In this document: piece by piece, positions 23,171 through 63,659 of the stretch
How the letters are laid out: each line of letters starts with the position of its first letter
How positions within the stretch are numbered: position 1 is the first letter of the stretch
Source: Phycisphaerae bacterium
GTDB lineage: Bacteria; Planctomycetota; Phycisphaerae; UBA1845
Reading direction: 5' to 3'
Length of the DNA: 64,000 nucleotides
NCBI GenBank assembly: GCA_020056715.1
Contig: JAGVHG010000040.1
Location: 11,920 to 75,919 of the forward strand
Notes under the pieces: model-generated
The model's database searches: none
What the model saw: the letters and a program-made list of their open reading frames with translations, nothing else
Told to the model about the DNA's origin: nothing
Translations under genes and position numbers: made by a program

Positions 23171-24924
23171 TCCGCCGCGACCGCCCGTGCCCGCGCAACC
23201 CAATAGTCGATGTAGAGCAAGAGCCACACCAGCGCGCAACCCCATGCGAACCAATCACCATACCGGGAGTACATCGAGTACCGCGAATCCACGCTGATGC
23301 GTGAGATCGCGTATCCCGACTCACCGGGCCAGCTATTGGACGGATTGCCGCGAACCCGGTCGTGTACCCGGCCTGATGGCTCGATGAACGCACTGACGCC
23401 CGTCGTAACCGCCCGCGCGATTCCGACCCGGTTCTCGACGGCTCGAAAAACGCAAATGGCCAGGTGTTGCGGCTGTTGCGACCCGTGACCGTACCATCCG
23501 TCGTTGCTGATGTTGAGCATGAAGTCGACGCGCTTTTCGTTCGATCCGCCGGAGACGAACTCCCTGCTGACGTAAGGCATCACGTCCTCGTAACAGATCG
23601 GGACGCCGAATCGGTAGGAACGGCCCGGCTGCGATGCGGGTTCCATCGTGAAGCGTCGGAACTCATTTCCGGAAGTGAGCGAATACTCGAAACCTAGGTC
23701 AGCCCCGCTGAAGGGCATGATCCGATTCAGCCAATGGTAGACGAAGCGTAACCGCCCGAACCGAAATGGAACGACCTCGCCGAAATACACGAGGTGGATC
23801 TTGTCGTAGCGTCCCGGCTCCGAGCCATCCGGGCCAAACACCATGGCCGAGTTGTATCGCCATTCCGTGGCACGCAAGTCGTACGGCGTCTTCACGAGCG
23901 AGGCACTACCCACTACCACGTAGGCGTTGCCCCCGGTCGCATAGCGTTGAAATCGGGCGAAGCTATCCCGCGAAATTTGGAAGAAGTCCCGCGCCTCCGG
24001 GTTTAGGTACATAAACCACGGGGTCTCCGGCAAGAGTAACAGATCGGGCTTCTCCTTCGCCGCCTCCTCGAGCATCGAGAAGTACGTCCGCATCTTGTCG
24101 AGATCGTTGACGTCCGGCCCATCCACCGACACCAGGTAATCGCCTTGGATCACCGCGACCTTAGGGCCCTCGGTCGTCGTTCCGCGATGCAACTGAACTT
24201 GCCCATAGATCACCGTCGCGGCCACAAGCACGATTGCGAACCCGACGCTGAATCTAGCGGACCGCGCGGGCATCCCGTCGCTGCCGCTCCGTGCTCTGAG
24301 TCTGACCAGGATCACATCGGCGATAGCCCCGTTGACCGCGGCCACGACGAAGCTGACTCCGTACGCGCCGACCAGATCACTGATCTGGATCATCGTTAGC
24401 ACGCTATACTGACTGTGGGCAAGGTAGAACCAAGGAAACCCAGTGATAACCACCGCGCGGAGCATTTCGCTGCCCGTCCAGATGAGCGGGAAGACCACGG
24501 CCAGTCCGCCTACGGCGGATCGCCGTACGGCGTGGCGTACCGGGCACGCCACTAGGGGAAAGTACGCGGCCTGGTAGAGCGACAAGCCGAGGTACCCCCA
24601 TCCCGTAGCCGCGTACATCCAGCGCATGTTGATCAGGAACGACACCAAGCCCAGCATGTAACTATAGAAATAGACCCGCGGCGCTTGCGTCGTCCTGGCC
24701 GTCAGGATCAGCCAGGGAACCATACAAACGAAAGCCACCGGCCAAACGGAGATCGGCGCGAAGATGACACTCTGCAACAGCGCGCTAAGCAGGGCGAGAA
24801 CGGCGACGGCGCGATGGGTATTGATGGCAAACTCCGGCGCAGCCTCGGAGGGCACGCGGCGTGGCTTGGCATTCGGCGTGGTCGGATCGAGAGTTCGGTT
24901 CAACAGGCGTCCATCCTTGGGCAT
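23167..24924 (-). CDS. lnt: apolipoprotein N-acyltransferase
   Basis: Multi-TM N-terminal domain plus a CN-hydrolase domain with the E-K-C triad context (LLLPETPW, YDKIHLVYFGE, GVPICYEDVMP). Confidence 0.88.
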   Translation of the reverse strand: MPKDGRLLNRTLDPTTPNAKPRRVPSEAAPEFAINTHRAVAVLALLSALLQSVIFAPISVWPVAFVCMVPWLILTARTTQAPRVYFYSYMLGLVSFLINMRWMYAATGWGYLGLSLYQAAYFPLVACPVRHAVRRSAVGGLAVVFPLIWTGSEMLRAVVITGFPWFYLAHSQYSVLTMIQISDLVGAYGVSFVVAAVNGAIADVILVRLRARSGSDGMPARSARFSVGFAIVLVAATVIYGQVQLHRGTTTEGPKVAVIQGDYLVSVDGPDVNDLDKMRTYFSMLEEAAKEKPDLLLLPETPWFMYLNPEARDFFQISRDSFARFQRYATGGNAYVVVGSASLVKTPYDLRATEWRYNSAMVFGPDGSEPGRYDKIHLVYFGEVVPFRFGRLRFVYHWLNRIMPFSGADLGFEYSLTSGNEFRRFTMEPASQPGRSYRFGVPICYEDVMPYVSREFVSGGSNEKRVDFMLNISNDGWYGHGSQQPQHLAICVFRAVENRVGIARAVTTGVSAFIEPSGRVHDRVRGNPSNSWPGESGYAISRISVDSRYSMYSRYGDWFAWGCALVWLLLYIDYWVARARAVAAE

Positions 24925-46675: not shown

Positions 46676-49600
46676 TTGAAAGGTACCGCTGTGACAAGGC
46701 AGAAAGGCTCCAACATCGTTCGCGTCATCAAGTTCAAATCCCTGGTACTTGTCCTCGGACTTCCAGCTCTGGCGACCGTCACTCAAGGAGGGGTAGAGGT
46801 GCAGCTCGTGCTCAACCCGGACCAGGCGGCTTATTCGCCGAACCAAGTCGTGCAGGTCGACGTCAATCTGGCTCAAGCGCCAGGCGGCAGTGATCAGCTC
46901 TTGCGCATGGTCGAGTTTGATCTGCAAGCCACAAACCCGTTCCTCACGCTCGCTCTCCCGTTGACGCACAACAAAGGGACGCCGGGCACGGGCGATGACA
47001 TCAAGTTTTGGTCGTTCAGTTCGCTTTCAATGTGCGTATCTTTCCCGTCGTTCTGCGGATTCAGGCACCTCATCGACGACGACCGCCCGGCTGGTCCGGT
47101 GGACATGCGGGTGGACGTTCTTTCGATCGCATACTTCGGTTTGACCGCTGATTCGACGGCGCAGATCCTCCTTCCGGCAAGCGGCGTACCGCTGACTATC
47201 GGTCGGTTGCAAGTCACGATGCCGGCGTTCGACGGGGATTTCATGCTGAACCTGGTAAACGCCGGCGACCCCGATCCCGTCCGCGGCACCCATGTGGACT
47301 TTGGCTTCGACTCGCATATCATCTGGGAGGCCCGTCTCGCCGCGCCCAACGATGTGACTGGTGGGACCGTTCTGTTCCATGTTTTTTCACCGCTTGCGAC
47401 ATCGCCGCCATTAATCGCCCTCGAACCCGATATACCGAAAACCCGAGTGCTTTCCTTTAATGTCCCGCCCGCCGGTGGCGGGAACGGTTCCGCGACGGCC
47501 ATCAAGATCACGATGGTCGATTTGCAAAACCCGAATCCGCCGAACTTGCCGCAATACCCACCGCCAAACTTCGGTGCGTACGAGTCTGAAACGTGTATGG
47601 CCGCGGGCGAGATGAACGGGTGTGCCCGCTGGGTGGGCAAGCCGGGGATCTTCCTTGAATCGCAGGACAGTCCGGGCCTGGGGAGCTTCGCCGGCGCACG
47701 CCTGCAGTGCACACCGTACTACCATGACTTCGCGGGCGAAGGCCTGCTTCACGTAACCGGGGCCGAAATCGTCCCCAGCTCCACGTATAAGGTCGAAGTG
47801 TTCGGAAGCAACTGCAATGGCAACGAGAGCACTTGCATGGATGTATCCGCCCCGGTGACGATCGGCACGCGCCGTTCCGGCGACGTGTCCGCGTTGTATC
47901 AGGTACCCTCACCAGCGACTCTGTCCCAGCCCAACGCAGTCGACGTCGCGCAATTGGTCAACAAGTTCAAGAACGTGACGGGCGCTCTGGTGAAAGCGAT
48001 CGCACAGTTGCAACCCAACCTGCCGGAGTTAAACGCGGACGTGAGCGCCTTGGACATCGTGGCGGTGGTGGATGCGTTGAAGGGCTTCGCCTACCCGCTC
48101 AGCGGTCCCTGTCCGTGCCCGTCGACGGTGCCCTGCGGCAGCGTCGCGTGCCCTTCGGGTCCGGCGCCTTGTGTTGCCGCATTCGGCGCCGGCGCTATGT
48201 GCGTGAAGACCTGCACGGGCGGCGCCAACCATGGCGACCCGTGCATCAGCGACACGCACTGTCCCGGCGGAACCTGCGGCAATGCCTTCTGCCGCGATCG
48301 CTGCGGACGGTGCGACGCTCCGAATTGCGACGATCAAAACCCGTGCACGGACGATTCTTATTTGTACGGGGTCTGCGAACACGCCGACAACACCAACTCC
48401 TGCAACGACAACAACGCCTGTACGACGAACGATCATTGCTCCAACGGCTCGTGCAGCGGAACAATCCTTGACTGCAACGACAGCAACGAGTGTACGGACG
48501 ATTCGTGCAATCCAGCGAGCGGGTGTGTCCTTGTGAACAACTCCAATTCCTGCACCGATGGGTTGTTCTGCAACGGAAGCGATACGTGCAGCGGCGGGAA
48601 CTGTGGTTTACACTCGGGTAACCCGTGTCCGTCCAACACCACTTGCGACGAAGCAACGCAAACATGTATGCCGAGGGGCAGCGTGATATCGTTCAAAGCG
48701 GTCAAGAGAAACAACGTGGCGATCACGCCGACCAACAACCTTACAGTCCTCGGGGGCGACACGATCGAAGTGGAGCTCTTCCTTTCCAACTGGATCAACG
48801 ACTTTCCAGTCGATGACATTCCCAATAATGTCCGTCTCTTTCAAGTGAAACTTGACCGTGAGCGGTACGTCAGTCCCGATAATGGAACCGCCAAGCCGCT
48901 GGGCTGGTGCGGGCCGGTGGAGAGGATCAACTGCACAGGGTCGGCTACTTGTCCACCCGAGTACCCCATTTGCCTAACGCCTGCGGGGTGCACGTGCTCA
49001 CCGCACAATCCGGACCTTGGGGGGTTCATTACCACGTCGCGAACGGACTTCCTGCTTTTCGGACTGGACGGGCCTACACCCCAATGCGTCACTTCAGTCA
49101 TTGACTATACATACTATGGGGTAGCCGCGGACAGCTCAGTGCCGGACACGGGAGTGCCCCGCTATCTCGGCACCTTGATCCTAAAGGTGTCCGCGAACGC
49201 CTGCGGCACATTCACCATCGGCTTCGTCCAAGAAATCGGGAATACGTTCATCGCCGATCCGGCTCCTAAGCCGAATGTGGCGTTGCCGGCTTTGCAGCCG
49301 CTCCTTCTTACGGTTAGCGATTGTTCGCAGCAGCTTTTGTCTTGTAGCCCCGGTCACTGCAACATTGATGCCCGCATCGCCCACGACCGGCACGACCAGA
49401 ACATAAAGAAAAATACGAACCGGATGGTGATGACTTTCAGTAAACCGACCACGGGAATGACGGCGGCGGACTTTGAAATCACGGTTGTTCCCTACGATCC
49501 CATTAATGATATCATCCCCACCATTAGCATCTTAACGCCGAACGGAACGGACCCGAAGATAACAACCCTCACCCTCAACCGCCGCATCCAGCAGACGCGT

Positions 49601-52681: not shown

Positions 52682-52760
52682 CCCGCTCTACTCTCAACTT
52701 TCATTAGACATGGTCCGCAGAATTGCTACATACAGCGGATGGGCTTCGTTTGGTCCGCAA

Positions 52761-52800
52761 CAGCCCAAACGCCCTTGAGTCCGCCTGCGGCGGAGGCGAG
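52761..52800 (+). repeat. composite hairpin module (head, first arm and loop, then the palindrome tccgcc-tgc-ggcgga)
   Basis: cag cccaaacgc ccttga g tccgcctgcggcgga ggcgag. 36 of 37 nt are identical to 53823-53859. Confidence 0.8.
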
Positions 52801-52816
52801 GTGACTACCTTCAACA

Positions 52817-52890
52817 TGCGCCCGGCGGGATTCGAACCTGCGACCCCCGGTTTAGGAAACCGGTGCTCTATCCAACTGAGCTACGAGCGC
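52817..52890 (-). tRNA. tRNA-Arg (anticodon CCU)
   Basis: Reverse complement: GCGCTCGTAGCTCAGTTGGATAGAGCACCGGTTTCCTAAACCGGGGGTCGCAGGTTCGAATCCCGCCGGGCGCA. It has a 7-bp acceptor stem (one G-U pair), D-arm GCTCAGTTGGATAGAGC, anticodon stem CCGGT/ACCGG with loop TTCCTAA, and T-arm GCAGG-TTCGAATC-CCGCC-type. No encoded CCA. Confidence 0.9.
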
Positions 52891-53273: not shown

Positions 53274-53346
53274 GGAAATGTGGAAACGCCGAAGCCGGGA
53301 AAAGCCGAAATTTCGGCGTTTCAGCGTTTTGACTTTTCCGTTTCGG
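53274..53346. repeat. family A ~74-nt palindromic element (GAAACGCCGAAA type)
   Basis: ggaaatgtggaaacgccgaagccgggaaaagccgaaatttcggcgtttcagcgttttgacttttccgtttcgg. The whole element folds on the centre gaaatttc. Confidence 0.75.
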
Positions 53347-53356
53347 ACGGGGTCGT

Positions 53357-53386
53357 CAGCGGCAAGGCCGGTGAGCCTTGCCGCGA
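53357..53386 (+). repeat. 30-nt hairpin module (loop variant CGGTGA)
   Basis: cag cggcaaggc cggtga gccttgccg cga. The 9-bp stem is perfect. It contains the TTG (53378) that the ORF track uses as the kinase start. Confidence 0.75.
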
Positions 53387-55564
53387 GGAGATGGTGCGCA
53401 CAGCTTGCGAAACTGGTGGAAATCATTTCGAGGGTTCCTCACCGCGGAGGAAGTGCCGCGTTGGTTCGGCCTTTCCGTAGTTCTCATCTACGTCGTGGGA
53501 ATGGGGTCCATCGCCCAGTTCGGCATCGCCCAGGCGCGGCGGGAGACGGCGATCCGTTTCCAGATTGACAGCCAATACGCGGTCAAGCTCCTCGCCGATC
53601 GAATCGAGGCCATCGAGGGCGAGGGCGCAACCGACCCGAAGTGGTTGAGCGTCTGCCAACGAGCGCTGCGGGAGTTCGCGGCCAACGTCCCCGCCAAATC
53701 CGTTCGCGTTGTTGAAGGCCGTCCTCCGGGGCGGATCATCGCCTCGACCAACCCCACGGAAACCGGGACCAGTACCACTCCCGGCGCGCCGGGAGTGGCG
53801 CGTGGGGCGCGAATCGCGGCACACCAAACGCCCTTGAGTCCGCCTGCGGCGGAGGCGAGCGGATCAACCAAGGCATTGCAACCAGGCGGGCTGGAGATCG
53901 CAACGATTTCCTCGAACGGCTCCGAAACGCGGCATCGACTCCTCCGTGCGCCGCTCCACCGTATCCATCAGAGCCGGGAGTCCGCCGCAGGCGGACGACC
54001 GGAATCGACGTACGTGGACCACGCTGCCCAGGAGGCCAATCGGGTCGCTACCGCTCCCCGCTCTGATCAAGACGCCTACCTAGAGGTCATCCTGCCCTTC
54101 GAACCGGTCGAACCGACGAGTCTTGCCAACCAGGCGCGGATGCTGGCCATCGTCCTGGCCGTGCTCGGGGCGTTGTTTGTGGTCTATCGATGTTTGCGCG
54201 AACAGCTTCGCGGACTCTCCAAGATCGCCGGCCGTCTGGAATTGCATCGAGATCGGATTGAAGACGACCTCGCCTCCCTGCGGATCGGTGACGCACTCGA
54301 TGGAGTCACCGTGGGCTGGAATGAACTCGTTGACCTGACCGAGCGACTCCAAACTAGCGTTCAGCGGACCGAGGCCAACGAGGAACTTTCCAGCGTTCTT
54401 CAACGCACAGGCGCTGGGGCGTTGTCCGAAGCGCTCAACGCCGTCCCCGACGGGCTGATGTACATCTCCGATGAAGTTCGCTTCGAGTATCTCAACTCGG
54501 CGGCCCTGCGACTACTCGGGTGGAATGCGCCAGACGCCAACGTCAGCGGCGTGGCCCGTGAGCCACGCCGTGAGAGAAACTATCCGACCCTGATCGATGC
54601 CCAGGCGAACGGACTGGGCCTGAAGCTCTTGGAATTGATTCGCGGCGCCGCCTTGCCGGAGGGCGTTTTTGAAGCGCGGACCGAGGTGCTCGAGGCCGGC
54701 GACGCCGAGGCCCACGACCTCAGTACCTACCGTGTGTGGCTGATTCCCTTGCAGCGCGCCCGTCACCACGGCGAGTGCGTCGTCGTCATCCGTGATGTGA
54801 GCCAGCAGTTTCGCGCCGACCGTGCCCGCGAGGAATTCATCGCCCAGGTGACGCACGAACTACGCACGCCGCTCACCAACATCCGGGCGTATACGGAGAC
54901 CCTTTCCAGCGGCATGTTCGAGGACCCCAAGGTCATCACCGAGTGCTACAACGTGATCACCAAGGAGACCCGCCGGCTGTCGCGTTTGGTGGAGGACATT
55001 CTGAGCGTTTCGCAGTTGGAGGTCGGCTCGATCGAGCTGCACGTGGACAGCGTTGACCTCAAGGTTTTACTGAACGACGGCGTACGCGACGTTCGGGGCC
55101 TCGCCGATGAGAAAAACATCGACGTCCAATTGGTCTTGCCCGCAAAGCTCGAACCGGTCCGCGCCGACCGCGACAAGCTCGCCGTGGTCATCAACAACCT
55201 CCTCGGCAACGCGATCAAGTACACGCCCGCCAACGGTAACGTGATGGTCGGCTGTCAGGTCGCCGCCGACGTCGTGGTGCTCACTTTCAAAGACAACGGC
55301 ATCGGAATCGACCCCTCGGAGCACACCAAGGTCTTTGAGAAGTTCCAGCGCGGCAGCAACCCGGAGGTGCAGAGCGAGTCGGGCACGGGTATCGGTCTCT
55401 ACACGGCCCGCGAGATCGTACGTCGTCACGGAGGGGACATCGAGCTGCTCAGCGAAAAGGGCAAGGGTTCGACCTTTATGGTGCGCTTGCCGCATCGCGA
55501 GAGCCGCGCCGCCGCCGTCAGCACCAACTCCCGTGAGAGTTGGGGCGGTCAGTCCGCGGTGTAA
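53378..55564 (+). CDS. sensor histidine kinase (two TM helices, repeat-colonised extracytoplasmic region, PAS, HisKA, HATPase_c)
   Basis: H-box FIAQVTHELRTPLTNI, N-box NNLLGNAIKYT, G1 DNGIGI, G2 GTGIGLYTAREIV. TM helices FGLSVVLIYVVGMGSIAQFGI and MLAIVLAVLGALFVVY. The start is uncertain (TTG 53378, TTG 53405 or GTG 53453). Confidence 0.88.
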   Translation: MPRGDGAHSLRNWWKSFRGFLTAEEVPRWFGLSVVLIYVVGMGSIAQFGIAQARRETAIRFQIDSQYAVKLLADRIEAIEGEGATDPKWLSVCQRALREFAANVPAKSVRVVEGRPPGRIIASTNPTETGTSTTPGAPGVARGARIAAHQTPLSPPAAEASGSTKALQPGGLEIATISSNGSETRHRLLRAPLHRIHQSRESAAGGRPESTYVDHAAQEANRVATAPRSDQDAYLEVILPFEPVEPTSLANQARMLAIVLAVLGALFVVYRCLREQLRGLSKIAGRLELHRDRIEDDLASLRIGDALDGVTVGWNELVDLTERLQTSVQRTEANEELSSVLQRTGAGALSEALNAVPDGLMYISDEVRFEYLNSAALRLLGWNAPDANVSGVAREPRRERNYPTLIDAQANGLGLKLLELIRGAALPEGVFEARTEVLEAGDAEAHDLSTYRVWLIPLQRARHHGECVVVIRDVSQQFRADRAREEFIAQVTHELRTPLTNIRAYTETLSSGMFEDPKVITECYNVITKETRRLSRLVEDILSVSQLEVGSIELHVDSVDLKVLLNDGVRDVRGLADEKNIDVQLVLPAKLEPVRADRDKLAVVINNLLGNAIKYTPANGNVMVGCQVAADVVVLTFKDNGIGIDPSEHTKVFEKFQRGSNPEVQSESGTGIGLYTAREIVRRHGGDIELLSEKGKGSTFMVRLPHRESRAAAVSTNSRESWGGQSAV
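53776..53797. repeat. perfect 22-nt palindrome, sharing a 19-mer with 56558-56576
   Basis: cactcccggcgcgccgggagtg. The 19-mer tcccggcgcgccgggagtg recurs in the HD-GYP gene. Both are read in the same frame as PGAPGV. Confidence 0.75.
53820..53859 (+). repeat. composite hairpin module inside the kinase ORF
   Basis: cac accaaacgc ccttga g tccgcctgcggcgga ggcgag. Translated as HQTPLSPPAAEAS. Confidence 0.8.
53969..53998 (+). repeat. 30-nt module variant (CAG-N9-[tccgcc-gca-ggcgga]-CGA) inside the kinase ORF
   Basis: cag agccgggag tccgccgcaggcgga cga. Same head, tail and total length as the canonical modules. Confidence 0.6.
54044..54070 (+). repeat. short dispersed repeat (family G variant) inside the kinase ORF
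   Basis: 24 of 27 positions identical to the intergenic copy at 28101-28127. Confidence 0.6.
54544..54573 (+). repeat. 30-nt hairpin module inside the kinase ORF
   Basis: cag cggcgtggc ccgtga gccacgccg tga. The 9-bp stem is perfect. Read as SGVAREPRRE. Confidence 0.8.
55519..55548 (+). repeat. 30-nt hairpin module inside the kinase ORF 3' end
   Basis: cag caccaactc ccgtga gagttgggg cgg. 8 of 9 stem pairs. Read as STNSRESWGG. Confidence 0.78.
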
Positions 55565-55572
55565 CCGGGCGG

Positions 55573-55618
55573 CAGAACCAATCCGTCGGTCTGCGGATGG
55601 GTGTTGGTTCGAGTTTTT
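55573..55618 (+). terminator. CAG-hairpin-CGAG element followed by T5 between the kinase and receiver genes (weak terminator or attenuator candidate)
   Basis: cag aaccaa-tccg tcggtctg cgga tgggtg ttggtt cgag ttttt. This is a 10-bp interrupted stem with an asymmetric bulge. The T-run begins 4 nt after the stem. Confidence 0.3.
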
Positions 55619-55629
55619 GGGATCCGAAT

Positions 55630-56025
55630 ATGGCCAAGATTCTTATTGTCGATGATGACGCCCATATCGTCCGCGTCCTGTCCATGTGGCTGGGTCGGCA
55701 CGGCTACGACGTGGTCACGGCGCGCAACGGCGAGGCGGCTTTGGCGACGCTGGATCGCGAAGAGGTCGACATGATCATCTCGGACATGAACATGCCGGGT
55801 CTGGACGGGGTCGGACTGGCGAAGGCGGTTCGAGCGAAAAGCGGCCCCACGATTCCCATTCTCATGTTGACGGCCCGTTGCGATCAGGAACGTCTCAGTG
55901 AACAGCTTGCGGCGTATGGTGTCCGCGTATACCCCAAACCGTTCCTCCCGTCGCAGTTGGTAGTGGAAATCAACTCCGCCTTCGGCGGATTAGGCGTCGC
56001 CGCCAGTGAGGGTTCGGTATCATGA
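55630..56025 (+). CDS. single-domain CheY-like response regulator
   Basis: MAKILIVDDDAHIVRVLSMWL...VDMIISDMNMPGLDG...PKPF. 131 aa. Its stop forms an ATGA overlap with the next gene. Confidence 0.88.
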   Translation: MAKILIVDDDAHIVRVLSMWLGRHGYDVVTARNGEAALATLDREEVDMIISDMNMPGLDGVGLAKAVRAKSGPTIPILMLTARCDQERLSEQLAAYGVRVYPKPFLPSQLVVEINSAFGGLGVAASEGSVS

Positions 56026-57521
56026 CTCGTCCAAAAAAACAGCATGCTGTTCCGACTTCTCCCGGCGCCCCGGCGACGTCCAAGATCGAAGCATCAGACG
56101 CACGGCCCGTGAGCCGTGCGGCGAGGGAAGGCCCGAAGATCGAAGAACCCGACCGTTTGGGCCTTCGATCTTTGATCTTTGATCTTCGATCTTCGGGTGA
56201 CCTGACCGCGTTGCTGCCGGCTCTGTCGTCGTCGGTCGAACAGTTGATGACCGAGCACCAGGGCATGGCCGACGAATTGCTCTGCCTGTACGAACAGCTC
56301 GGCATCATCTTTGAGATCACCCGCAAGCTCGCCGGGGTTCATAACGAATCCGATGTTCTCGACCTTTTTCTAATCAGCCTGCGACGCAGTTTTGAGGAAC
56401 GGACCGTCTTTGCCGCCCACAGCCGCCCCCGCGGATGGGTGTTGGAAGGGAAACGCGACCGTCATGCGAGCCGACCGGGAAGGGAGGGTCCAGATGGGAG
56501 CGGCGACACGATGGTGGTCAATGAATGGTTGCGCGGACTGCTCGACCGTGCCGCGAATCCCGGCGCGCCGGGAGTGATCGTCGAATCGGCGTTGCCGGGG
56601 GCCATGCCCGGCGCTATCGCCGAGGCCATGATCGCCCCGGTGATCTCCGGCGACGCCCTTGTCTGCTCCCTCGTTCTCCTCCGCACCGAAAAGACGCCTG
56701 CGTTCCGGGCGAGTGAGATGATGTTGATCGAGTCCCTCACCACCTTCTGCGGCGACCTGATCCGCAGCCATCGGCTGGTGCGCGAGCTTCGCGAGATGTC
56801 TCTCACCATGGTGCGGGCCTTGGTCAACGCCATCGATCAGAAGGACGAATACACCTGCGGTCATTCCCTGCGCGTGGCGTACTACGCCACGACGCTGGGT
56901 CAACACCTCGGCTTGGGTGAGGTCGATCTCCAGATGCTCCAGTGGGCCGCGCTCCTCCACGACGTGGGGAAAATCGGGATTCGCGACAACGTCCTTAAGA
57001 AGGAAGGCAAGCTCACTCCCGAAGAGTTCGGGCATATCCAGGAACACCCCGTCCGCAGCCACAAGGTCGTGCAGGAAGTTCCGCAGCTTCTCCGAGCGTT
57101 AGACGGCATTCTTCATCACCACGAACGATACGACGGCTCCGGATACCCCGCAGGGCTGAAGGGGGAACAGATCCCGTACCAGGCACGGATCATTCAGATC
57201 GCCGATGTGTTTGACGCTCTGACCTCCAACCGCTCTTACCGTAAGGCCTTCGACTGGCAGCGGGCCTTAGGAATCCTTCAAGAAGAGGCCGGCAAAACCG
57301 TCGACCCGTGTTTGCAGAAGATCTTCGACACCCTCATCCGCGAGACGCTGAAAGACGAGCCGATGGCATGGGAACGCATGGTCGAACACGCCAACCGTTT
57401 CATGCAGGGTCTGGATGCTCCCGACGACCGAGAGTCAGACGACGCGACCGTCAGACGACGCGACCAAGGCGGGAGCGTCCGGGCGCCGGGAGTCGGCGGA
57501 AATAGAAGGAGAATGACATGA
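56022..57521 (+). CDS. HD-GYP domain protein (predicted c-di-GMP phosphodiesterase) with a GAF-like N-terminal region
   Basis: HSLRVAYYA, LLHDVGKIGI, HHERYDGSGYP. The first ~75 codons consist of repeat elements. An alternative start at ATG 56247 would leave them intergenic. Confidence 0.85.
   Translation: MTRPKKQHAVPTSPGAPATSKIEASDARPVSRAAREGPKIEEPDRLGLRSLIFDLRSSGDLTALLPALSSSVEQLMTEHQGMADELLCLYEQLGIIFEITRKLAGVHNESDVLDLFLISLRRSFEERTVFAAHSRPRGWVLEGKRDRHASRPGREGPDGSGDTMVVNEWLRGLLDRAANPGAPGVIVESALPGAMPGAIAEAMIAPVISGDALVCSLVLLRTEKTPAFRASEMMLIESLTTFCGDLIRSHRLVRELREMSLTMVRALVNAIDQKDEYTCGHSLRVAYYATTLGQHLGLGEVDLQMLQWAALLHDVGKIGIRDNVLKKEGKLTPEEFGHIQEHPVRSHKVVQEVPQLLRALDGILHHHERYDGSGYPAGLKGEQIPYQARIIQIADVFDALTSNRSYRKAFDWQRALGILQEEAGKTVDPCLQKIFDTLIRETLKDEPMAWERMVEHANRFMQGLDAPDDRESDDATVRRRDQGGSVRAPGVGGNRRRMT
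56082..56197. repeat. family B inverted-repeat element with a nested 30-nt hairpin module (56095-56124)
   Basis: Perfect 14-bp arms cccgaagatcgaag (56132-56145) and cttcgatcttcggg (56184-56197). The nested module is cag acgcacggc ccgtga gccgtgcgg cga. Confidence 0.78.
56558..56576. repeat. palindromic 19-mer shared with 53779-53797
   Basis: tcccggcgcgccgggagtg, identical in both genes. Confidence 0.75.
57434..57480 (+). repeat. family E element (16-bp tandem duplication plus a 27-mer shared with pilM)
   Basis: gtcagacgacgcgacc occurs twice (57434-57449 and 57450-57465). gacgacgcgaccaaggcgggagcgtcc (57454-57480) is identical to 63580-63606. Both are read as RRDQGGSV. Confidence 0.8.
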
Positions 57522-58915
57522 CGCTGACACTTCTATTGCCGTGGTTTCCGATCCTCTTGGCCGTCGGCGTCGGCGGACGGTTGTTGGGGCGCAGTCGCGG
57601 CTTCGCCCTCGGCCTGGTGTGCGGGATGTTTTGGATCGTCTTGGTTCAGGCAACCGCCGGAACCGGAGTGTGGAGGCAGCCGTGGGTGGTCGTGACCATG
57701 CTCATCGGCGCCGCGGCGATTTTTCTGATTGGCGGGTGGGCCGGTTCCGCCGAAGGCGGACCGCTCGACGATCTCGCGCCCATCCGAACCCGGAGCGCAA
57801 GCGACGGGTCAAGACCCCGCGCTGGCGCTTGGGGTTCGGATTCCACGGAGCGCTCCTCCGATGAGACGACGATCGCCCTCGACCGGTTCGCAACCGTGAT
57901 CCAGCAGTTCGACGACTGGCTTGTCGAACACCGCGACGATGCCGACCCTTGGCCGTTGTTCGGCGAGTTCATTCGCGGCGCCCTGTATCAATGTTGCAAG
58001 GCGACGCACGTAAAACCATTTCGCTTACTCAGCGAAGGCGAAGAGCTGACGCCGCTCCAATCGTCCCGGTTGGAGCCGGACCCATTTACGGAAGGTAGGC
58101 GAGTTTCCGCTCGGCAGGGGATTCTAGGTCATGTGGTTACGAGCGGTCGATCCTACGTAGAAGGCGACCGGACCCAGGGTGAGCTGATCGAGCAACTAGC
58201 CCAGGCCTGCCCTGAACCGATCGTGTGGTGCTTCGCCATCACCCAAGGCACCCAAAGACTCGGTGCGGTGACGGCGGGTCAACTGGACATCGTTCCCGCA
58301 GACAACCTGGCGCTGCTTCGCGCCGTCGAACAACTTGTCTCGCAATGTTGGTGCCTGCTCGCTGAAACGGTTCACAGCCGCACCGCCGGTCAAGATGACC
58401 CAGGCTCGGGACTCTATAACCGGACCGCGTTCCTCCAGGTCGCAGAGCAATCGTTGCGCGAATCGTACGCTCAAGGTGAACCGGTGGCGATCGCCGTGAT
58501 CGTCGTGGAAGGGATGCGCGAGCTGAACGACGCCGGAAGATGGGAGGTCGCCGATGAACTGGTCCGCGAAGTCGCCGACTCCCTACGCCGCAAGATTCGC
58601 ATGGATGACCGCCTCGGGCGTTTCGACGGTTCGCGTTTCATCTGGCTGCTACGCCGCGTAGACGCCGAGTTGGCGTCGCTGATTGTCAAGCAAGTGATAT
58701 CGCGTCTGACGACGTTGTGCGGCGACCGTAGCCGATGGTCCGCCTCTGGCGGAGCGATCACTGTGCGTTGCGGCGTGGTCGGTAGCGGTACCGGTAGTAG
58801 AAACCCCGACCTCCGCACGCTGGTCTCCCATGCCTTGGTGCAGTCTCGCCGTGCAAGGCTCGAACATGTGACCATCGCCGGCGAACTGGACGCGGCGGAA
58901 ATGTCGAAACGCTGA
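57518..58915 (+). CDS. membrane-anchored GAF-GGDEF protein with a degenerate active site (DGSRF) and an intact RxxD I-site
   Basis: Two N-terminal TM helices and a GAF-like middle region. The GGDEF-fold pattern is GLYNRTAFLQVAEQ...VAIAVIVVEGMRELND...RKIRMDDRLGRFDGSRFIWLL. It has an ATGA overlap with the HD-GYP gene. Confidence 0.8.
   Translation: MTLTLLLPWFPILLAVGVGGRLLGRSRGFALGLVCGMFWIVLVQATAGTGVWRQPWVVVTMLIGAAAIFLIGGWAGSAEGGPLDDLAPIRTRSASDGSRPRAGAWGSDSTERSSDETTIALDRFATVIQQFDDWLVEHRDDADPWPLFGEFIRGALYQCCKATHVKPFRLLSEGEELTPLQSSRLEPDPFTEGRRVSARQGILGHVVTSGRSYVEGDRTQGELIEQLAQACPEPIVWCFAITQGTQRLGAVTAGQLDIVPADNLALLRAVEQLVSQCWCLLAETVHSRTAGQDDPGSGLYNRTAFLQVAEQSLRESYAQGEPVAIAVIVVEGMRELNDAGRWEVADELVREVADSLRRKIRMDDRLGRFDGSRFIWLLRRVDAELASLIVKQVISRLTTLCGDRSRWSASGGAITVRCGVVGSGTGSRNPDLRTLVSHALVQSRRARLEHVTIAGELDAAEMSKR
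57782..57841 (+). repeat. family F 60-bp palindromic element inside the GGDEF-protein ORF
   Basis: Perfect 10-bp termini atccgaaccc / gggttcggat. 53 of 60 positions identical to 62570-62629 inside pilM. Read as IRTRSASDGSRPRAGAWGSD. Confidence 0.85.
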
Positions 58916-58970
58916 AACACCGAAACGCCGAAATTTCGGCTTTTCCCCATTTCGGCGTTTTCGCATTTGG
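58897..58970. repeat. family A ~74-nt palindromic element between the GGDEF gene and the STAS gene
   Basis: ggaaatgtcgaaacgctgaaacaccgaaacgccgaaatttcggcttttccccatttcggcgttttcgcatttgg. It covers the last 6 codons and the stop of the GGDEF gene. Confidence 0.85.
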
Positions 58971-58977
58971 ATAGCCT

Positions 58978-59313
58978 ATGAAGATCGAACAGCAACAGGT
59001 CGGAACGGTGGATGTCTTCACCCCCATAGGGCCTCTGGTGGACCAGGACGGAGAGACCTTTTCGAAGGCGCTCCTCACCAGGGTGAAGTCGCCCAACCCC
59101 CGCATCGTGTTGGCCATGCAGGAAGTCCCCTATGTAGACAGCAATGCTCTGGAGGGCTTACTCACCGCCACTGATGAACTCAACGAACGCGCCTCCAGCC
59201 TCAAGCTGGCCACCGTTACCCCGACCTGTCGGGAGATCTTCGAACTGACCGGATTGTCGCCACGGTTTCGTTTCTTCAAAGACGTGCAGGACGCGGTGAA
59301 GAGCTTTTTGTAG
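58978..59313 (+). CDS. STAS-domain protein (anti-sigma-factor antagonist / SpoIIAA-like)
   Basis: 111 aa. The pattern VDVFTPIGPLVDQD...LAMQEVPYVDSNALEGLL...LKLATVTPTCREIFELTGL matches the STAS fold, with the conserved Ser in YVDSNALEGL. Confidence 0.82.
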   Translation: MKIEQQQVGTVDVFTPIGPLVDQDGETFSKALLTRVKSPNPRIVLAMQEVPYVDSNALEGLLTATDELNERASSLKLATVTPTCREIFELTGLSPRFRFFKDVQDAVKSFL

Positions 59314-59386
59314 GAGAAAGCGGAAACGCCGAAACACCGAAACGCCGAATTTTCGGCTTTTCCCCATTTCGGCGTTTTCGCATTTA
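59313..59386. repeat. family A ~74-nt palindromic element between the STAS gene and the ATPase gene
   Basis: The 55-nt core (59331-59385) differs from 58914-58968 at one position. Confidence 0.85.
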
Positions 59387-59390
59387 GCCG

Positions 59391-61157
59391 ATGCCGAATC
59401 TAACCATCGAAACCGCAGTCCGACTCGGCGACCAGCTCATCCGCGACGGCGTGGTCACGGCTGAGCAACTCGCGGACGCCTTGGCGCGTCAGTCCGCCGC
59501 AGGCGGAGCGGTGCGTATCGGCAAGGCGCTCATGGACGTCGGCGCCATCTCCTCCGCCGCCCTCGTTGGGGCGCTCGCCCGACGGCTTAACGTGAAGGGA
59601 ACTACGCTCCGTCACGGTCTCATCGACCCCAAAGTCGCTAAGTCCATCCCCAAGGAGGAGGCCGAACGGCTGCGCGTGCTGCCCCTGTTCCGGGTGCGCG
59701 ACGAACTCACCGTGGCCATGGTCGATCCGCAATCTCTGCCCGTCCAAGATCGGCTTCGGTCGCTCACCGGCTGCGCGATTCGCTCAGTTCTCGTTCTCGA
59801 GGAAAACCTCGCCGAGTACCAGCAGAAATACCTCGCCGCCGAGGTCACCGTCGATTCCTTCCTCGCCTCGATGGAAGAGTCCGACATTCAGATCACCGAG
59901 TCGGAAGCGATCGACGAAGGCCCGATCACCGACCTCGACAAGATGGTCGAGGGCAGCCCGATCGTAAACCTCATCAACCTCGCCATACTCACCGCCCTCC
60001 GTGCCGGGGCCTCCGACGTGCACATCGAGCCGGACCGCGACGGAACGCACATCCGCTATCGCATCGACGGCGAGTTGCGCGAGATGCTCAAGCCCCCGCG
60101 GGGGATGCACGCCGCGATCGTCTCCCGCGTCAAGGTCATCGGGCGGATGGACATCGCCGAAAAGCGGCTCCCTCAGGAGGGTCGCGTGCATCTCGTCGCT
60201 GACCGTCGCGAGATTGACCTGCGTGTCTCCTCCATGCCCACCGTGCTCGGCGAAAAGATCGTGCTCCGCATTCTCGACAAGGCCAATCTCTCCTTCGAGC
60301 TGGAAACCCTCGGAGTTCGAGGACAGGACCGTTGGGCGATCGAGGCCATGATCCACAGCCCCTACGGCCTGATGCTCGTCACCGGGCCTACCGGCTCCGG
60401 AAAGACCACGACACTATATTCCGCTTTGGATCTCCTCCGCGACGAGTCCACCAACATCGTCACCATCGAGGATCCGGTGGAGTATCAACTGCCGCTCGTC
60501 AACCAGATTCAGGTCAACGAACGAGTGGGGCTGACCTTCGTCCGCGCCCTGCGGTCCATCCTCCGACAAGACCCCGATGTCATCATGGTCGGAGAAATTC
60601 GCGATCAGGACACCGCCCGCGTGGCGATTCAGAGCGCCCTCACCGGCCACTTGGTCCTCTCCACCCTGCACACCAATGACTGCCCCGGCGGCATCATGCG
60701 CCTGGTGGACATGGGCATCGAGCCGTTTCTCCTCACCGCTTCCATCCTCGGCTTCGTCGCCCAGCGGCTCGCCCGCACGATCTGTGCATCTTGCAAAACC
60801 TCCTACTATCCGCCACCCAATTTGCTCAAGCAGGTCGGCTGGGAGAATCGCACCAGCGAACTCTTCCAAAAGGGCGAAGGCTGCCGGGAGTGCAACAACA
60901 CCGGGTTCCGCGGGCGCATCGGCATTTACGAGGTGATGCTGCTGGACGCGGAACTCAAGCAGATGATTCAGAAGAACCCGTCGGAAACCGACATCCGCGT
61001 CTACCTCGCCCAGACCGGATGGCGGACGTTGCGGGAAAAGGCCCTCGACCTGGTCGAGCGCGGTGAATCCACGCTCGAGGAAGTGCTGCGGGTGACGCGC
61101 TCCGAGGCGCTCGACGTCAGTGATCCGTCGGGCGCCGGAAGAGTGGGTGAATCATGA
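59391..61157 (+). CDS. GspE/PilB/MshE-family secretion ATPase with an N-terminal MshEN-type domain
   Basis: Walker A GPTGSGKTTT, Walker B VIMVGEIRD, His box TGHLVLSTLHTN, and the tetra-Cys cluster CASCK...CRECNNTG. The N-terminus is RLGDQLIRDGVVTAEQLADALARQ, then RIGKALMDVGAISSAALVGALARR. Confidence 0.9.
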   Translation: MPNLTIETAVRLGDQLIRDGVVTAEQLADALARQSAAGGAVRIGKALMDVGAISSAALVGALARRLNVKGTTLRHGLIDPKVAKSIPKEEAERLRVLPLFRVRDELTVAMVDPQSLPVQDRLRSLTGCAIRSVLVLEENLAEYQQKYLAAEVTVDSFLASMEESDIQITESEAIDEGPITDLDKMVEGSPIVNLINLAILTALRAGASDVHIEPDRDGTHIRYRIDGELREMLKPPRGMHAAIVSRVKVIGRMDIAEKRLPQEGRVHLVADRREIDLRVSSMPTVLGEKIVLRILDKANLSFELETLGVRGQDRWAIEAMIHSPYGLMLVTGPTGSGKTTTLYSALDLLRDESTNIVTIEDPVEYQLPLVNQIQVNERVGLTFVRALRSILRQDPDVIMVGEIRDQDTARVAIQSALTGHLVLSTLHTNDCPGGIMRLVDMGIEPFLLTASILGFVAQRLARTICASCKTSYYPPPNLLKQVGWENRTSELFQKGEGCRECNNTGFRGRIGIYEVMLLDAELKQMIQKNPSETDIRVYLAQTGWRTLREKALDLVERGESTLEEVLRVTRSEALDVSDPSGAGRVGES

Positions 61158-62365
61158 TTTTGACCTACGACGCCATCGACGCCGGCGGTCGCTCGACGAC
61201 GGATTCGATCGAGGCCCAGAATACTAAGGAAGCCGTCGAACAGCTCCGCCGCCGCGGCCTGTACGTCAAGAAAATAGCCGAGCCGCGGGTTTCAGCCCGC
61301 GTAGCGAAACCGAATCTTCCTGCGTCGCTGCGTCTGCCGCTCAAACTGCTGGTTCAAATCACGCGTCAGATGGCGATGTTGCTCCGCGCCGGCAGCGAGC
61401 TGGTTCCGGCCATTTCCGCCATCCAGCGGCAGATGACGAAGCCCAACCACGCGGCCTTGCTCGGGAAGCTCGTCAACGACCTCGAAGACGGAATGACCCT
61501 CACGGACACGCTGCGGAAGCACCCCCGTACCTTCGACGCGATCTACTGCGCCATCGTCGCCGCGGGCGAAGCCAGCGGAACCCTCACCGAGATGTTAGAG
61601 CGGCTTTCGGTCATCGTGGGGAAGCGCCGGGCCCTGCGCAAGAAAATCCTCGGCGCCCTTGCCTATCCGGCGCTGCTGATCGCGATGTGTTTTCATATCA
61701 TGCTTGTGGTGTTGTTCTTTGTGCTCCCGCGGTTCAACGCCATGTTCGTTCAGCTTAACGTGGAAACTCCCGCCACCACGAAAGCGCTGTTGTCCGTGTC
61801 CGTGGTCCTGCGCGGCTATTGGCCGGTGCTGCTCTTCGTCACCGCCGCACTCGCCGGAGCGGCGGCCTGGGCGTCTACCAGCCGGGCTGGACGACAATGG
61901 CTCAGCAACGTGCAGCTTTTCATCCCCGTCGTGGGACGACTGCGATCACGCCTCATCCAAGGCCAGATTTTTCGGACCATGGGAATGCTCCTGGAGAGCC
62001 GCGTCGACGTGCTCGATACATTAGATTTAGTCCGCGAGTCTACCCTCAACGGTCGCTTTCAGAAACTGTTCAACGACCTCCAGGAGGCCGTGACTTCCGG
62101 CGGGAGGCTCAGCACCGCGTTCGAGGCGTCCACCATCGTCGAGCCTTATATTTGTCAGGCCATCTACACCGGCGAGGACAGCGGCAGTCTCGGCGCCTCC
62201 ATGTCCTTCTGCGCCGATATGCTCGACGAGTCCAATGAAGAGTTCATCAGTATGGTCACGAAACTGATCGAGCCGTTGATTCTCATCATTATGGGCTTCG
62301 TGGTCGGCGGAGTGGCGATTTCACTGTTCGTGCCGTTGTTCGATATGACCTCCGCGATCAAGTAG
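61154..62365 (+). CDS. pilC: type II secretion / type IV pilus platform protein (GspF/PilC family)
   Basis: 403 aa with two T2SSF repeats and three TM segments. ATGA overlap with the ATPase gene. Confidence 0.88.
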   Translation: MILTYDAIDAGGRSTTDSIEAQNTKEAVEQLRRRGLYVKKIAEPRVSARVAKPNLPASLRLPLKLLVQITRQMAMLLRAGSELVPAISAIQRQMTKPNHAALLGKLVNDLEDGMTLTDTLRKHPRTFDAIYCAIVAAGEASGTLTEMLERLSVIVGKRRALRKKILGALAYPALLIAMCFHIMLVVLFFVLPRFNAMFVQLNVETPATTKALLSVSVVLRGYWPVLLFVTAALAGAAAWASTSRAGRQWLSNVQLFIPVVGRLRSRLIQGQIFRTMGMLLESRVDVLDTLDLVRESTLNGRFQKLFNDLQEAVTSGGRLSTAFEASTIVEPYICQAIYTGEDSGSLGASMSFCADMLDESNEEFISMVTKLIEPLILIIMGFVVGGVAISLFVPLFDMTSAIK

Positions 62366-62378
62366 CGAGACTCTGGGT

Positions 62379-63659
62379 ATGATGGTCGCACTGAAAGCTT
62401 TGCAACGCACCAGCTGGCGCGGCAGTCGAAGCCGGATCGGTCTGGACATAGGCGCAGCTGGTATCCGCGCCGTCCAGTTGAACCGCCAAGCACAGCCGCG
62501 CGGCCCAAGTAGCCCCCGCAGCCTGGACGGTTACGTGGTGACGAACGCCGCCTGTGGCGACCGGAGCCCGTCCGAACCCGGAGCGCAAACGACGGGCCAG
62601 GACCACGCACTAGCGCTTGGGGTTCGGATTCCACCGTTGCTGCCCCGTCAGGTCGAGGATTGTCTGCGCCGAGCAAACGTCCGCGGGAAAGCCGTCGCCG
62701 CCGCCCTGGCGACTCCCGACGTGGAGTTTCATACCCTTGAGTTGCCCGCCGCCGTTTTTCAGGCCGACGAGGTCGAGGCCGCTCAGATCGTGCGATTCGA
62801 AGTGGAACGCCTCATGTCCAACTCGCACGCTCCCGTCGAGACCCGGCATTGGCGACTGCCGCAGACGAACGTGACGGCCCCGAACGCCATCGGCGCGGGC
62901 GCCGCACATGAAATCATCAACGCAACGATCAAAGTCTGTGCCGAGGCGGGGTTGACCTGCACCGATCTGGATACAACCGCCACGGCGCTCAGTCGGTTCG
63001 GCGCTGTGTTGCAGAGCCGACCCAAAGACCAGATATGGGGAGTTCTGGACGTTGGCGATCGTCAAGCCCGCTTGGTGCTTTGCCTCGACGATACGCCGAT
63101 TTTGGTGCGGACGGCGGGCGCCGGTGGACGTGCCTGGACCCAACGCATCGCCGACGCCCTGCAAGTGAGCTTCAAGGCCGCGGAAATCCACAAACGCGAC
63201 CACGGGATCGCCCTGACCGGTCGTGCACTGGTGCGAGAATCTGCACTGGTGCGAGAATCCATTCTCGCACCAGGGGCCCCCCGCCTCCCCCATTATCAAG
63301 GGGGGAAAGAGGGGGTTCGAAGCGAATTGGCCTCGTTGATTCTGGGTGCCGTACGCGCGGACCTCAACGATCTGGCCTCCGAGGTCAAGCGATCGTACGA
63401 GTATGTCCTGAGTTGTTACCCGGGGAGACAGGCCGCTGACTTGGTACTTTGCGGCGGCGGTTCGCTCCTGCACTATTTTCCCGAGTTCCTGGGCAATGCC
63501 TTGGGCATACCCGTGCGTCGAGCGTCGAGCTATCTCCAGAGCGAATCGTGTCGACTTCGCTTCGCCGCCGAGAGGGTCGGACGACGCGACCAAGGCGGGA
63601 GCGTCCACGCTCCCCTCGAAGTCCTCGCCGTGGCCGTGGGACTCGCCATATCAGAGTAG
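62379..63659 (+). CDS. pilM: PilM-like actin-fold pilus assembly protein carrying three in-frame repeat-element insertions
   Basis: N-terminus IGLDIGAAGIRAVQL, then ...VLDVGDRQARLVL..., then C-terminal LVLCGGGSLLHYFPEFL. It is 426 aa; removing the element-derived segments leaves roughly the usual PilM length. Confidence 0.75.
   Translation: MMVALKALQRTSWRGSRSRIGLDIGAAGIRAVQLNRQAQPRGPSSPRSLDGYVVTNAACGDRSPSEPGAQTTGQDHALALGVRIPPLLPRQVEDCLRRANVRGKAVAAALATPDVEFHTLELPAAVFQADEVEAAQIVRFEVERLMSNSHAPVETRHWRLPQTNVTAPNAIGAGAAHEIINATIKVCAEAGLTCTDLDTTATALSRFGAVLQSRPKDQIWGVLDVGDRQARLVLCLDDTPILVRTAGAGGRAWTQRIADALQVSFKAAEIHKRDHGIALTGRALVRESALVRESILAPGAPRLPHYQGGKEGVRSELASLILGAVRADLNDLASEVKRSYEYVLSCYPGRQAADLVLCGGGSLLHYFPEFLGNALGIPVRRASSYLQSESCRLRFAAERVGRRDQGGSVHAPLEVLAVAVGLAISE
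62570..62629 (+). repeat. family F 60-bp palindromic element inside pilM
   Basis: gtccgaaccc...gggttcggat. 53 of 60 positions identical to 57782-57841. It is read in a different frame from that copy (SEPGAQTTGQDHALALGVRI). Confidence 0.85.
63225..63316 (+). repeat. family D element (2 x 18-nt tandem plus hairpin) followed by a C-rich/G-rich hairpin, inside pilM
   Basis: gcactggtgcgagaatct / gcactggtgcgagaatcc / attctcgcaccag. Then ccccccgcctccccc-attatcaa-ggggggaaagaggggg. Read as ALVRESALVRESILAPGAPRLPHYQGGKEG. Confidence 0.8.
63580..63606 (+). repeat. family E 27-mer inside the pilM 3' end
   Basis: Identical to 57454-57480. Confidence 0.8.

Follow-up and report, generated by a model that had tools for sequence, protein, structure and literature searches.

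Can a short DNA hairpin land between the two halves of a nucleotide-binding motif and leave the motif able to work? This question is raised by a gene for a PilB/GspE-family type IV pilus assembly ATPase, located in a 64,000-nucleotide stretch from a Phycisphaerae bacterium (contig JAGVHG010000040.1, positions 11,920 to 75,919 of the forward strand). We refer to the whole stretch as the window, and all coordinates are those of the window. A first-pass annotation, made from the letters of the window, had assigned the start of the ATPase to MshEN, a domain binding c-di-GMP (cyclic dimeric guanosine monophosphate), and had proposed that a repeat element modified the spacer between its two motifs. 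The joint reading we favour, with moderate rather than high confidence, is that of a PilB-like c-di-GMP sensor which carries a hairpin-lengthened spacer as a tolerated passenger. The parts of the gene are the following.

59391 to 61157, plus strand: gene of the PilB/GspE-family type IV pilus assembly ATPase, 588 amino acids (Pfam T2SSE, PDB relatives, NCBIfam)
59421 to 59492, plus strand: MshEN motif I, residues 11-34 (agrees with the strict motif throughout; conservation in 58 homologues)
59493 to 59513, plus strand: spacer SAAGGAV, residues 35-41 (7 residues against 5 in all close relatives)
59493 to 59507, without strand: hairpin TCCGCC-GCA-GGCGGA encoding S-A-A-G-G in the spacer (absent in relatives)
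59514 to 59585, plus strand: MshEN motif II, residues 42-65 (relaxed motif only: I43, M48, A52, R65)
59610 to 59843, plus strand: C-terminal alpha/beta subdomain of MshEN, residues 74-151 (Pfam PF05157; AlphaFold confidence, pLDDT, 90-96)
59952 to 61091, plus strand: T2SSE ATPase core, residues 188-567 (Pfam T2SSE; conserved Walker A and zinc-motif cysteines)

The ATPase core matches Pfam T2SSE (PF00437) with E = 2.7e-134. The Walker A sequence GPTGSGKT (332-339) and the zinc-motif cysteines C465, C468, C498 and C501 are conserved in the homologues of the ATPase, which are annotated from metagenome-assembled genomes of Phycisphaerae and Planctomycetota; among species-representative genomes the search reached 82% identity at most. 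The nearest PDB structures are the PilB proteins of Geobacter and Myxococcus (E about 1e-143 to 1e-137). NCBIfam ranks TIGR02538, PilB (type IV-A), first with 575.2 bits and TIGR02533, GspE, second with 559.7 bits. Since both scores lie under the equivalog cut-offs (675.65 and 630.25, respectively), we call the ATPase PilB-like and not a certified orthologue of PilB or GspE.

As published, the MshEN unit consists of two copies of a 24-residue motif, in its strict form RLGxx(L/V/I)(L/V/I)xxG(L/V/I)(L/V/I)xxxxLxxxLxxQ, and 5 non-conserved residues between them, 53 residues in total; the same authors use a relaxed pattern for finding family members (PMC5013675). Motif and canonical spacer length as given in the first-pass annotation agree word for word with the published ones, and the interval given there, 59421-59585, corresponds exactly to codons 11-65 of the translated open reading frame (ORF). 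Residues 11-34 (RLGDQLIRDGVVTAEQLADALARQ) satisfy every position of the strict motif, again as claimed. Residues 42-65 (RIGKALMDVGAISSAALVGALARR) fail the strict motif and satisfy the relaxed one. For this second copy the first reading was right about three departures (I43 for Leu, A52 at a position for Leu, Val or Ile, R65 for Gln) and overlooked a fourth, M48, also at a position for Leu, Val or Ile. The departures are family-wide in Phycisphaerae, where motif II begins with RIG, has G-A-I and ends in a basic residue, which is almost always Arg and in a few members Lys.

The Pfam model named 'MshEN' (PF05157) covers the C-terminal subdomain only, which it matches with 49.3 bits (cut-off 23.1). 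Since it misses the motif region, the c-di-GMP motif was assessed with NCBIfam NF053729 ('c-di-GMP_motif'), a curated model of 53 positions with a cut-off of 38 bits. NF053729 scores 40.0 bits on the full-length protein (E = 2.4e-10, residues 11-64) and 44.8 bits on the N-terminus alone; for comparison, a close relative (P0002), Geobacter metallireducens and Myxococcus xanthus reach 57.1, 66.9 and 61.0 bits. A profile search, proposed earlier as a check, thus speaks for the motif region with NF053729, while PF05157 reaches residues 74-151 only. The second proposed check, an alignment with Vibrio MshE, gave a clear answer: with phmmer against PDB sequences, residues 10-142 align with V. cholerae MshE (5HTL) at E = 2.5e-13.

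An AlphaFold model of the full-length protein was poor (pLDDT 59, predicted template modelling score, pTM, 0.31), and the fold comparison used the N-domain modelled alone (residues 1-152, pLDDT 86.5, pTM 0.75). The model predicts helices at residues 2-18, 24-36, 43-49 and 55-66, followed by the alpha/beta subdomain. Its best PDB match by Foldseek is 5HTL, 'MshE with cdg' (E = 5.6e-12, template modelling scores, TM, 0.63/0.68), and the next matches are c-di-GMP-bound PilF GSPII-B structures. Among 58 homologues of 78-97% identity, there is no variation at R11, L12, G13, L27, Q34, R42, G44 and L62, and at least 90% conservation at L31 and L58. In MshE, the equivalents of these positions stack on the two guanines or form leucine triangles around them (PMC5013675). 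The conservation points to purifying selection on the predicted ligand-contacting positions of the N-domain.

V. cholerae MshE (Wang et al. 2016, PMC5013675) and the N-domain of the window protein have in common tandem motifs on a predicted four-helix bundle, the alpha/beta subdomain, fusion to T2SSE and an identical motif I pattern, and MshE is the best structural match. They differ in the spacer (5 residues in MshE, 7 here) and in motif II, with L, V/I, F/I and Q in MshE and I, M, A and R in the window protein. The window ATPase is nearer to PilB than to MshE, and its c-di-GMP binding is predicted from sequence and model. As judged from profile, alignment, modelled fold and conserved ligand positions, the N-terminus of the ATPase is a recognisable MshEN-type domain, in agreement with the first assignment; as an annotation this is ordinary and routine. 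Membership of the family holds by profile and fold, whereas two features of the founding definition, taken literally, are lacking, namely a spacer of 5 residues and a motif II of the strict form.

The new part is the spacer change made by the hairpin, and the burst of mini-hairpins behind it. The spacer of 7 residues that had been read at first sight is indeed seen in the translation and extends the unit to 55 residues, as compared to 53. Its DNA, with the preceding codon (59490-59507, CAG TCCGCC GCA GGCGGA), contains a 3-nt loop closed by a perfect stem of 6 bp. Spacers of 5 residues (e.g. QSSGG, QSAGG, QASGV) are present in every listed homologue that covers this part, about 118 proteins with identities of 79-97%, and in 13 additional proteins of the closest 90% cluster. 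In some members of this cluster the first 80 residues are the same as in the window protein except for V22I and the spacer. Among about 130 close relatives the 7-residue spacer is confined to the window protein; since all the others have 5 residues, it is derived.

L093, the closest allele, has 93.7% nucleotide identity across the gene. It reads CGT CAG CAG TCC GGC GGC GGA CGC ATC at the spacer, where the window reads CGT CAG TCC GCC GCA GGC GGA GCG GTG CGT ATC, and about 60 nt on either side are almost the same in both. With reference to L093, 15 nt, CAG TCC GGC GGC GGA (QSGGG), have become 21 nt, TCC...GTG (SAAGGAV). The hairpin is missing from the orthologous DNA of seven relatives at the PilB spacer, and the calculated DNA fold of the window spacer has -6.3 kcal/mol versus -1.4 for the spacer of the relative. 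A clean replacement of 6 nt by 15 nt at this spacer was considered and rejected, as it fits no available relative.

The hairpin pattern TCCGCC-N3-GGCGGA is present in 9 copies in the window, distributed across 36 kb, where 0.02 are expected from shuffled sequence. A tenth copy has a 4-nt loop, and none of the other 6-bp hairpin stems occurs more than three times in the window. The loops read G-N-A on one strand in 8/9 copies (GCA five times, GAA twice, GTA once). A GNA loop closed by C·G reportedly makes the very stable d(C-GNA-G) type of DNA mini-hairpin known from work of Hirao and Yoshizawa. The copy in the PilB gene is the same as four other window copies over all 15 nt, loop included. Syntenic DNA from relatives that are 84-94% identical in nucleotides lacks the pattern, and 1.44 Mb from 89 related loci contain one match. 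The other copies placed in genes, given without strand, and the transfer RNA (tRNA) gene next to a related repeat are listed below; at five of these sites the hairpin stands cleanly in place of 6 or 12 nt of the relatives, with both flanks conserved.

55975 to 55989: response regulator (SAFGG), TCCGCC-TTC-GGCGGA, 6 to 15 nt; CAACTG / CGTTTG in four relatives
57746 to 57760: GGDEF protein (SAEGG), TCCGCC-GAA-GGCGGA, 6 to 15 nt; CAGATG / CAAATG replaced
58739 to 58753: GGDEF protein (SASGG), TCCGCC-TCT-GGCGGA, 6 to 15 nt; CGTTCG replaced
23134 to 23148: HEAT-repeat gene downstream of lnt, N-terminal codons (phase 1, FRLRRI), 6 to 15 nt; CGATTG replaced
24505 to 24519: lnt, a gene on the minus strand (SAVGG), 12 to 15 nt; CGGCACTGGCCG (R-H-W-P) replaced
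53981 to 53995: histidine kinase copy (SAAGG), inside a lineage-specific inserted region
53822 to 53872: 51-nt in-frame insertion in the kinase, with the hairpin within a longer 45-nt repeat
52817 to 52890, minus strand: tRNA-Arg(CCT)

The replaced sequences suggest a loose target hexamer, C-R-N-N-Y-G. All 8 copies placed in genes keep the reading frame. Six coding copies are in the S-A-x-G-G phase, while phase 1 applies to the copy at 23134 and phase 2 to the 51-nt version at 53839; a single shared phase for all coding copies is therefore rejected. The 45-nt repeat has a second copy at 52756-52800, about 20 nt downstream of the 3' end of the tRNA gene. At the receiver site a decayed copy (TCCGCATTCGGCGTA) is found in the more distant relative L092, from an independent assembly, which indicates that the receiver insertion is older and that the PilB copy and the second GGDEF copy are recent. 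Across the eight-gene cluster that includes the ATPase gene (53378-63659), there are 23 window-only in-frame insertions (180 amino acids), whereas three relatives have 3-7 each. Perfect hairpins, with stems of 6-12 bp, are present in at least 9 of these 23, as compared to 0-1 in the relatives. The hairpin is a lineage-specific repeat, from a family of small palindromes that overwrote parts of many genes in this genome. The copy in lnt stands in place of an R-H-W-P stretch that is near-identical in 25/25 homologues compared ([RH]-WP; one IP), and SAVGG at this position raises a question about the function of Lnt (apolipoprotein N-acyltransferase). Two variant hairpins were also seen, CCCGCC-GCA-GGCGGG at 15486-15500, which lies in another phase in a Ser/Thr kinase-TPR gene, and CCCGCC-GGT-GGCGGG at 47469-47481.

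The suggestion that a repeat had altered the spacer has therefore gained ground: all relatives have 5 residues, the hairpin is absent there, and five other sites are overwritten in the same manner. Sequence comparison gives good support to a recent, lineage-specific change made by one copy of the hairpin. One observation tells against such an origin: the ancestral spacer already held TCCG..GGCGGA, 10 of the 15 hairpin positions, and local mutation or a microhomology-guided conversion may have produced the spacer. A hairpin of local mutational origin, made for instance when template switching corrected a quasi-palindrome, would resemble the other copies partly by coincidence and would predict loop-less intermediate alleles such as TCCGCCGGCGGA. 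It would account for the TCCG and GGCGGA already included in TCC GGC GGC GGA of the closest relative and for the complex 15-to-21-nt change, which is unlike the clean 6-to-15 rule elsewhere. However, it would leave to chance the match with four other window copies over all 15 nt including the loop, and elsewhere the same 15-mer displaced the unrelated sequences CAGATG, CGTTCG, CAACTG, CGATTG and CGGCACTGGCCG. Moreover, about 130 relatives have similar S-G-G-G codons and the same change occurred in none of them. We consider this origin improbable.

Still further behind stands an assembly or sequencing artefact hiding a true spacer of 5 residues, to which we give hardly any credit. The 7-residue allele is a single sequence in a collection of 15 billion proteins, and scans of metagenome contigs of the Joint Genome Institute (JGI) for the hairpin-bearing PilB allele, and metagenome scans for a longer 34-nt repeat containing the hairpin, found nothing. 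Against an artefact speak the in-frame nature of the change, the nine perfect copies over 36 kb together with the copy with a 4-nt loop, the frame preserved by all eight genic copies and the decayed receiver-site copy in the independent assembly. Furthermore, a constant 15-mer in place of 6 or 12 nt is no product of an artefact.

We return to the favoured reading, a c-di-GMP sensor whose spacer was overwritten by one hairpin copy, and to the effect of the longer spacer on binding. In MshE, the spacer connects two ligand-contacting residues, Gln32 (end of helix 2) and Arg38 (start of helix 3) (PMC5013675); the spacer loop is thus located at that end of the bundle where the ligand binds. In the N-domain model all four helices are kept, with a loop at residues 37-42, and the added spacer residues are small and flexible. 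An insert of small flexible residues in the loop between helices 2 and 3 would leave the binding helices intact, and most likely it is a tolerated passenger and no adaptive redesign. Spacers of this length occur naturally. PilB of G. metallireducens and G. sulfurreducens have 7-residue spacers (KSADGQQ and RTSGGQQ) between well conserved motifs in a gapless alignment, which makes the predicted binding plausible here too. Among 46 motif pairs from a sample of 150 diverse representatives, 38 have a 5-residue spacer and the remaining 8 have spacers of 2-8 residues.

Two known PilB systems are comparable without being exact parallels. The Geobacter PilB proteins (5TSG, 6OLJ, 5ZFR) are the best full-length solved relatives and share the 7-residue spacer between conserved motifs, but their spacer is common to both species and not encoded by the window hairpin, and their motif II ends in Gln where the window protein has Arg. 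The N-domain of Geobacter PilB is unresolved in the crystal structures (review PMC11656802). For M. xanthus PilB, c-di-GMP binding has been shown, as that review reports it (Dye et al. 2023, cited in PMC11656802). This protein likewise has an N-terminal MshEN domain whose motif II starts with RIG and has G-A-I; it differs by a 5-residue spacer, QKNGT, and by the terminal Gln of motif II.

Several points weigh against binding by the window protein. Its spacer joins Q34 and R42, the equivalents of Q32 and R38 of MshE, and a change in length at this place is not obviously neutral. Motif II departs from the strict motif four times, including the terminal Gln-to-Arg exchange; Gln61 of MshE forms hydrogen bonds with ribose and phosphate, and in the GSPII-A domain of Thermus thermophilus PilF, R62Q is among the changes introduced to restore binding, where it was not tested alone (PMC12002112). 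NF053729 drops by 12 bits, from 57.1 in the relative of 97% identity to 44.8 in the N-terminus of the window protein, and the full-length score is merely 2 bits over the cut-off. A perfect motif is no guarantee of binding, as an extended helix 1 and contacts between subdomains can block it (PMC12002112), and modelled helix 1 of the window protein begins at residue 2, with a pLDDT there of about 50. A literature search found no report of c-di-GMP binding by Geobacter PilB or by any MshEN domain with a 7-residue spacer.

These points are the substance of the principal competing explanation, in which the domain would have an MshEN fold without c-di-GMP binding, either here or family-wide, and would act as a docking module for PilM, PilC or another partner. 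XpsE-N, X. citri PilB-N (which binds PilZ) and T. thermophilus PilF GSPII-A would be its models, and the structural neighbours of the N-domain do include the non-binding XpsE-N and PilB-N/PilZ complexes. It could draw on the non-canonical motif II, on the 7-residue spacer, on the narrow profile score and on the example of domains that fail to bind despite a perfect motif. The non-binding PilF GSPII-A resembles the window protein in a motif II that ends in Arg and in an N-terminally extended helix 1, the latter predicted at low confidence in the window protein. But PilF GSPII-A lost the Arg and Gly of motif II (S39, A41) and the Gln of motif I (H33), whereas the window protein keeps all of them; the key residues of MshE, the Arg, the guanine-reading Gly of RLG and the clusters of three Leu, show no or almost no variation within the family, and it is exactly such residues that the non-binding domain has lost (PMC12002112). 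An Ile in place of Leu cost PilF only 2.4-fold in affinity (PMC12002112). The top structural matches are ligand-bound forms, and the operon is centred on c-di-GMP enzymes. We regard a non-binding domain as unlikely, yet as the alternative to be taken most seriously among the three rivals weighed. Judged on motifs and model, c-di-GMP binding has probably been kept in the window protein, although we hold this with some reserve; in the relatives with a 5-residue spacer, binding as predicted from their sequences would be somewhat more probable still.

The gene neighbourhood bears on the same question. The ATPase gene is part of the eight-gene cluster, the other members of which are as follows.

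53378 to 55564, plus strand: PAS-HisKA-HATPase histidine kinase, first gene of the cluster (start codon uncertain)
55630 to 56025, plus strand: receiver-only response regulator
56022 to 57521, plus strand: HD-GYP-type c-di-GMP phosphodiesterase (HHERYDGSGYP; Pfam HD_5 E = 5.5e-42, NCBIfam phosphodiesterase family E = 3.4e-39)
57518 to 58915, plus strand: membrane GGDEF-domain protein (motif read from the sequence)
58978 to 59313, plus strand: STAS-domain protein (domain match)
61154 to 62365, plus strand: PilC/GspF platform protein (domain matches)
62379 to 63659, plus strand: PilM-like actin-fold protein (domain match)

The order histidine kinase, response regulator, HD-GYP, GGDEF, STAS, PilB, PilC, PilM is conserved in relatives, and after PilM the syntenic relatives have PilN, a PilO-like protein whose weak match stays under the Pfam cut-off, and an N-methyl pilin. 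The GGDEF protein has a degenerate active site (DGSRF), and an RxxD I-site (RMDD) lies 5 residues upstream, also in relatives. This distance is the canonical one for an I-site, and the protein is probably a c-di-GMP receptor and no cyclase, as read from these motifs. A c-di-GMP riboswitch upstream of the operon was also considered and rejected: an Rfam scan of the window found the tRNA-Arg only. The predicted content of the cluster fits a c-di-GMP-controlled pilus.

In the mechanism that we propose, c-di-GMP would be bound in the manner of V. cholerae MshE, with the N-termini of helices 1 and 3 on one side of the ligand and the C-terminal halves of helices 2 and 4 on the other. Binding would couple pilus assembly to the c-di-GMP level, which the co-transcribed kinase, receiver, HD-GYP and degenerate-GGDEF (I-site) proteins may set or read. 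In this lineage, one copy of the 15-nt mini-hairpin would have overwritten the ancestral spacer DNA and turned QSGGG into SAAGGAV.

The cluster region contains further palindromes and repeats. A second hairpin family has the constant loop CCGTGA (CGGTGA once) and occurs at 53356-53391, 54543-54578, 55526-55558 and 56094-56129; its stems differ and are self-complementary (GGCGTGGC, CGCACGGC, GCAAGGC, CCAACTC), and three of the copies have been inserted in frame into the kinase and HD-GYP genes. A third family, CCCGG-CGCG-CCGGG, is found in frame in the kinase gene (53780-53806) and the HD-GYP gene (56568-56573), and also in the GGDEF gene of the relative L086, in one relative-specific insertion. 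In pilM, a window-only insertion of 10 amino acids (63243-63272) is a perfect hairpin with a 12-bp stem, CTGGTGCGAGAA-TCCA-TTCTCGCACCAG. A direct repeat of 69 nt, 90% identical, is shared by the GGDEF gene (57778-57846) and pilM (62566-62634). The GGDEF copy is also present in L086, L088 and L092, and a stretch of L093 similar to the pilM copy carries the repeat too; its presence in relatives makes it older than the 15-nt hairpins. A 48-nt repeat (57440-57487 and 63566-63613), whose translation ...RRRDQGGSV... lies close to the C-terminus in both the HD-GYP protein and PilM, is missing at both places in relatives. Between genes, palindromes of tandem octamers (GAAACGCC / GAAACACC ... GCCGAAATTTCGGC ... 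GGCGTTTTC) lie at 53275-53345, 58890-58976 and 59315-59401, upstream of the kinase, STAS and pilB genes, respectively. The STAS-pilB spacer of relatives has other simple-repeat palindromes, namely arrays of TTGCCAAT in L001 and of TTTGAAC in L086.

Palindromic repeats inside genes have been described as Rickettsia palindromic elements (RPEs) and as intragenic repetitive extragenic palindromes (REPs) of Opitutus terrae and others (Di Nocera et al. 2013, PMC3733652). Like the window hairpin, these are GC-rich, multi-copy stem-loops which lie in frame in genes, are lineage-specific and are thought to be tolerated in loops and linkers (PMC3733652). The window hairpin differs in size, 15 nt as compared to 20-40 nt for REPs and about 100-150 nt for RPEs, and it replaces 6-12 nt of host sequence where REPs and RPEs simply insert. 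No transposase was identified for it among the ORFs of the window, which were scanned in part. The REP superfamilies with GTAG or CGTC tags were considered and rejected, as the flanks of the hairpin copies have no shared tag in any case.

A bolder interpretation would be that the 15-mer TCCGCC-GNA-GGCGGA and the other hairpins come from an undescribed process overwriting 6-12 nt, and that the PilB spacer is a mutant which retunes or abolishes c-di-GMP control; we find this doubtful. If true, it would be the smallest 'mobile' palindrome known, active inside essential genes. Independently of this, the hairpin burst in housekeeping and signalling genes offers a compact system for the spread of palindromes in coding DNA and for its tolerance by proteins. 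The PilB spacer itself is a natural experiment, with alleles of 93-97% identity that differ essentially in a loop of 5 versus 7 residues. This loop links the halves of the longest known nucleotide-binding motif, and the affinities of the alleles would tell if the 5-residue spacer is a requirement or a habit, which bears on the sequence-based prediction of MshEN receptors.

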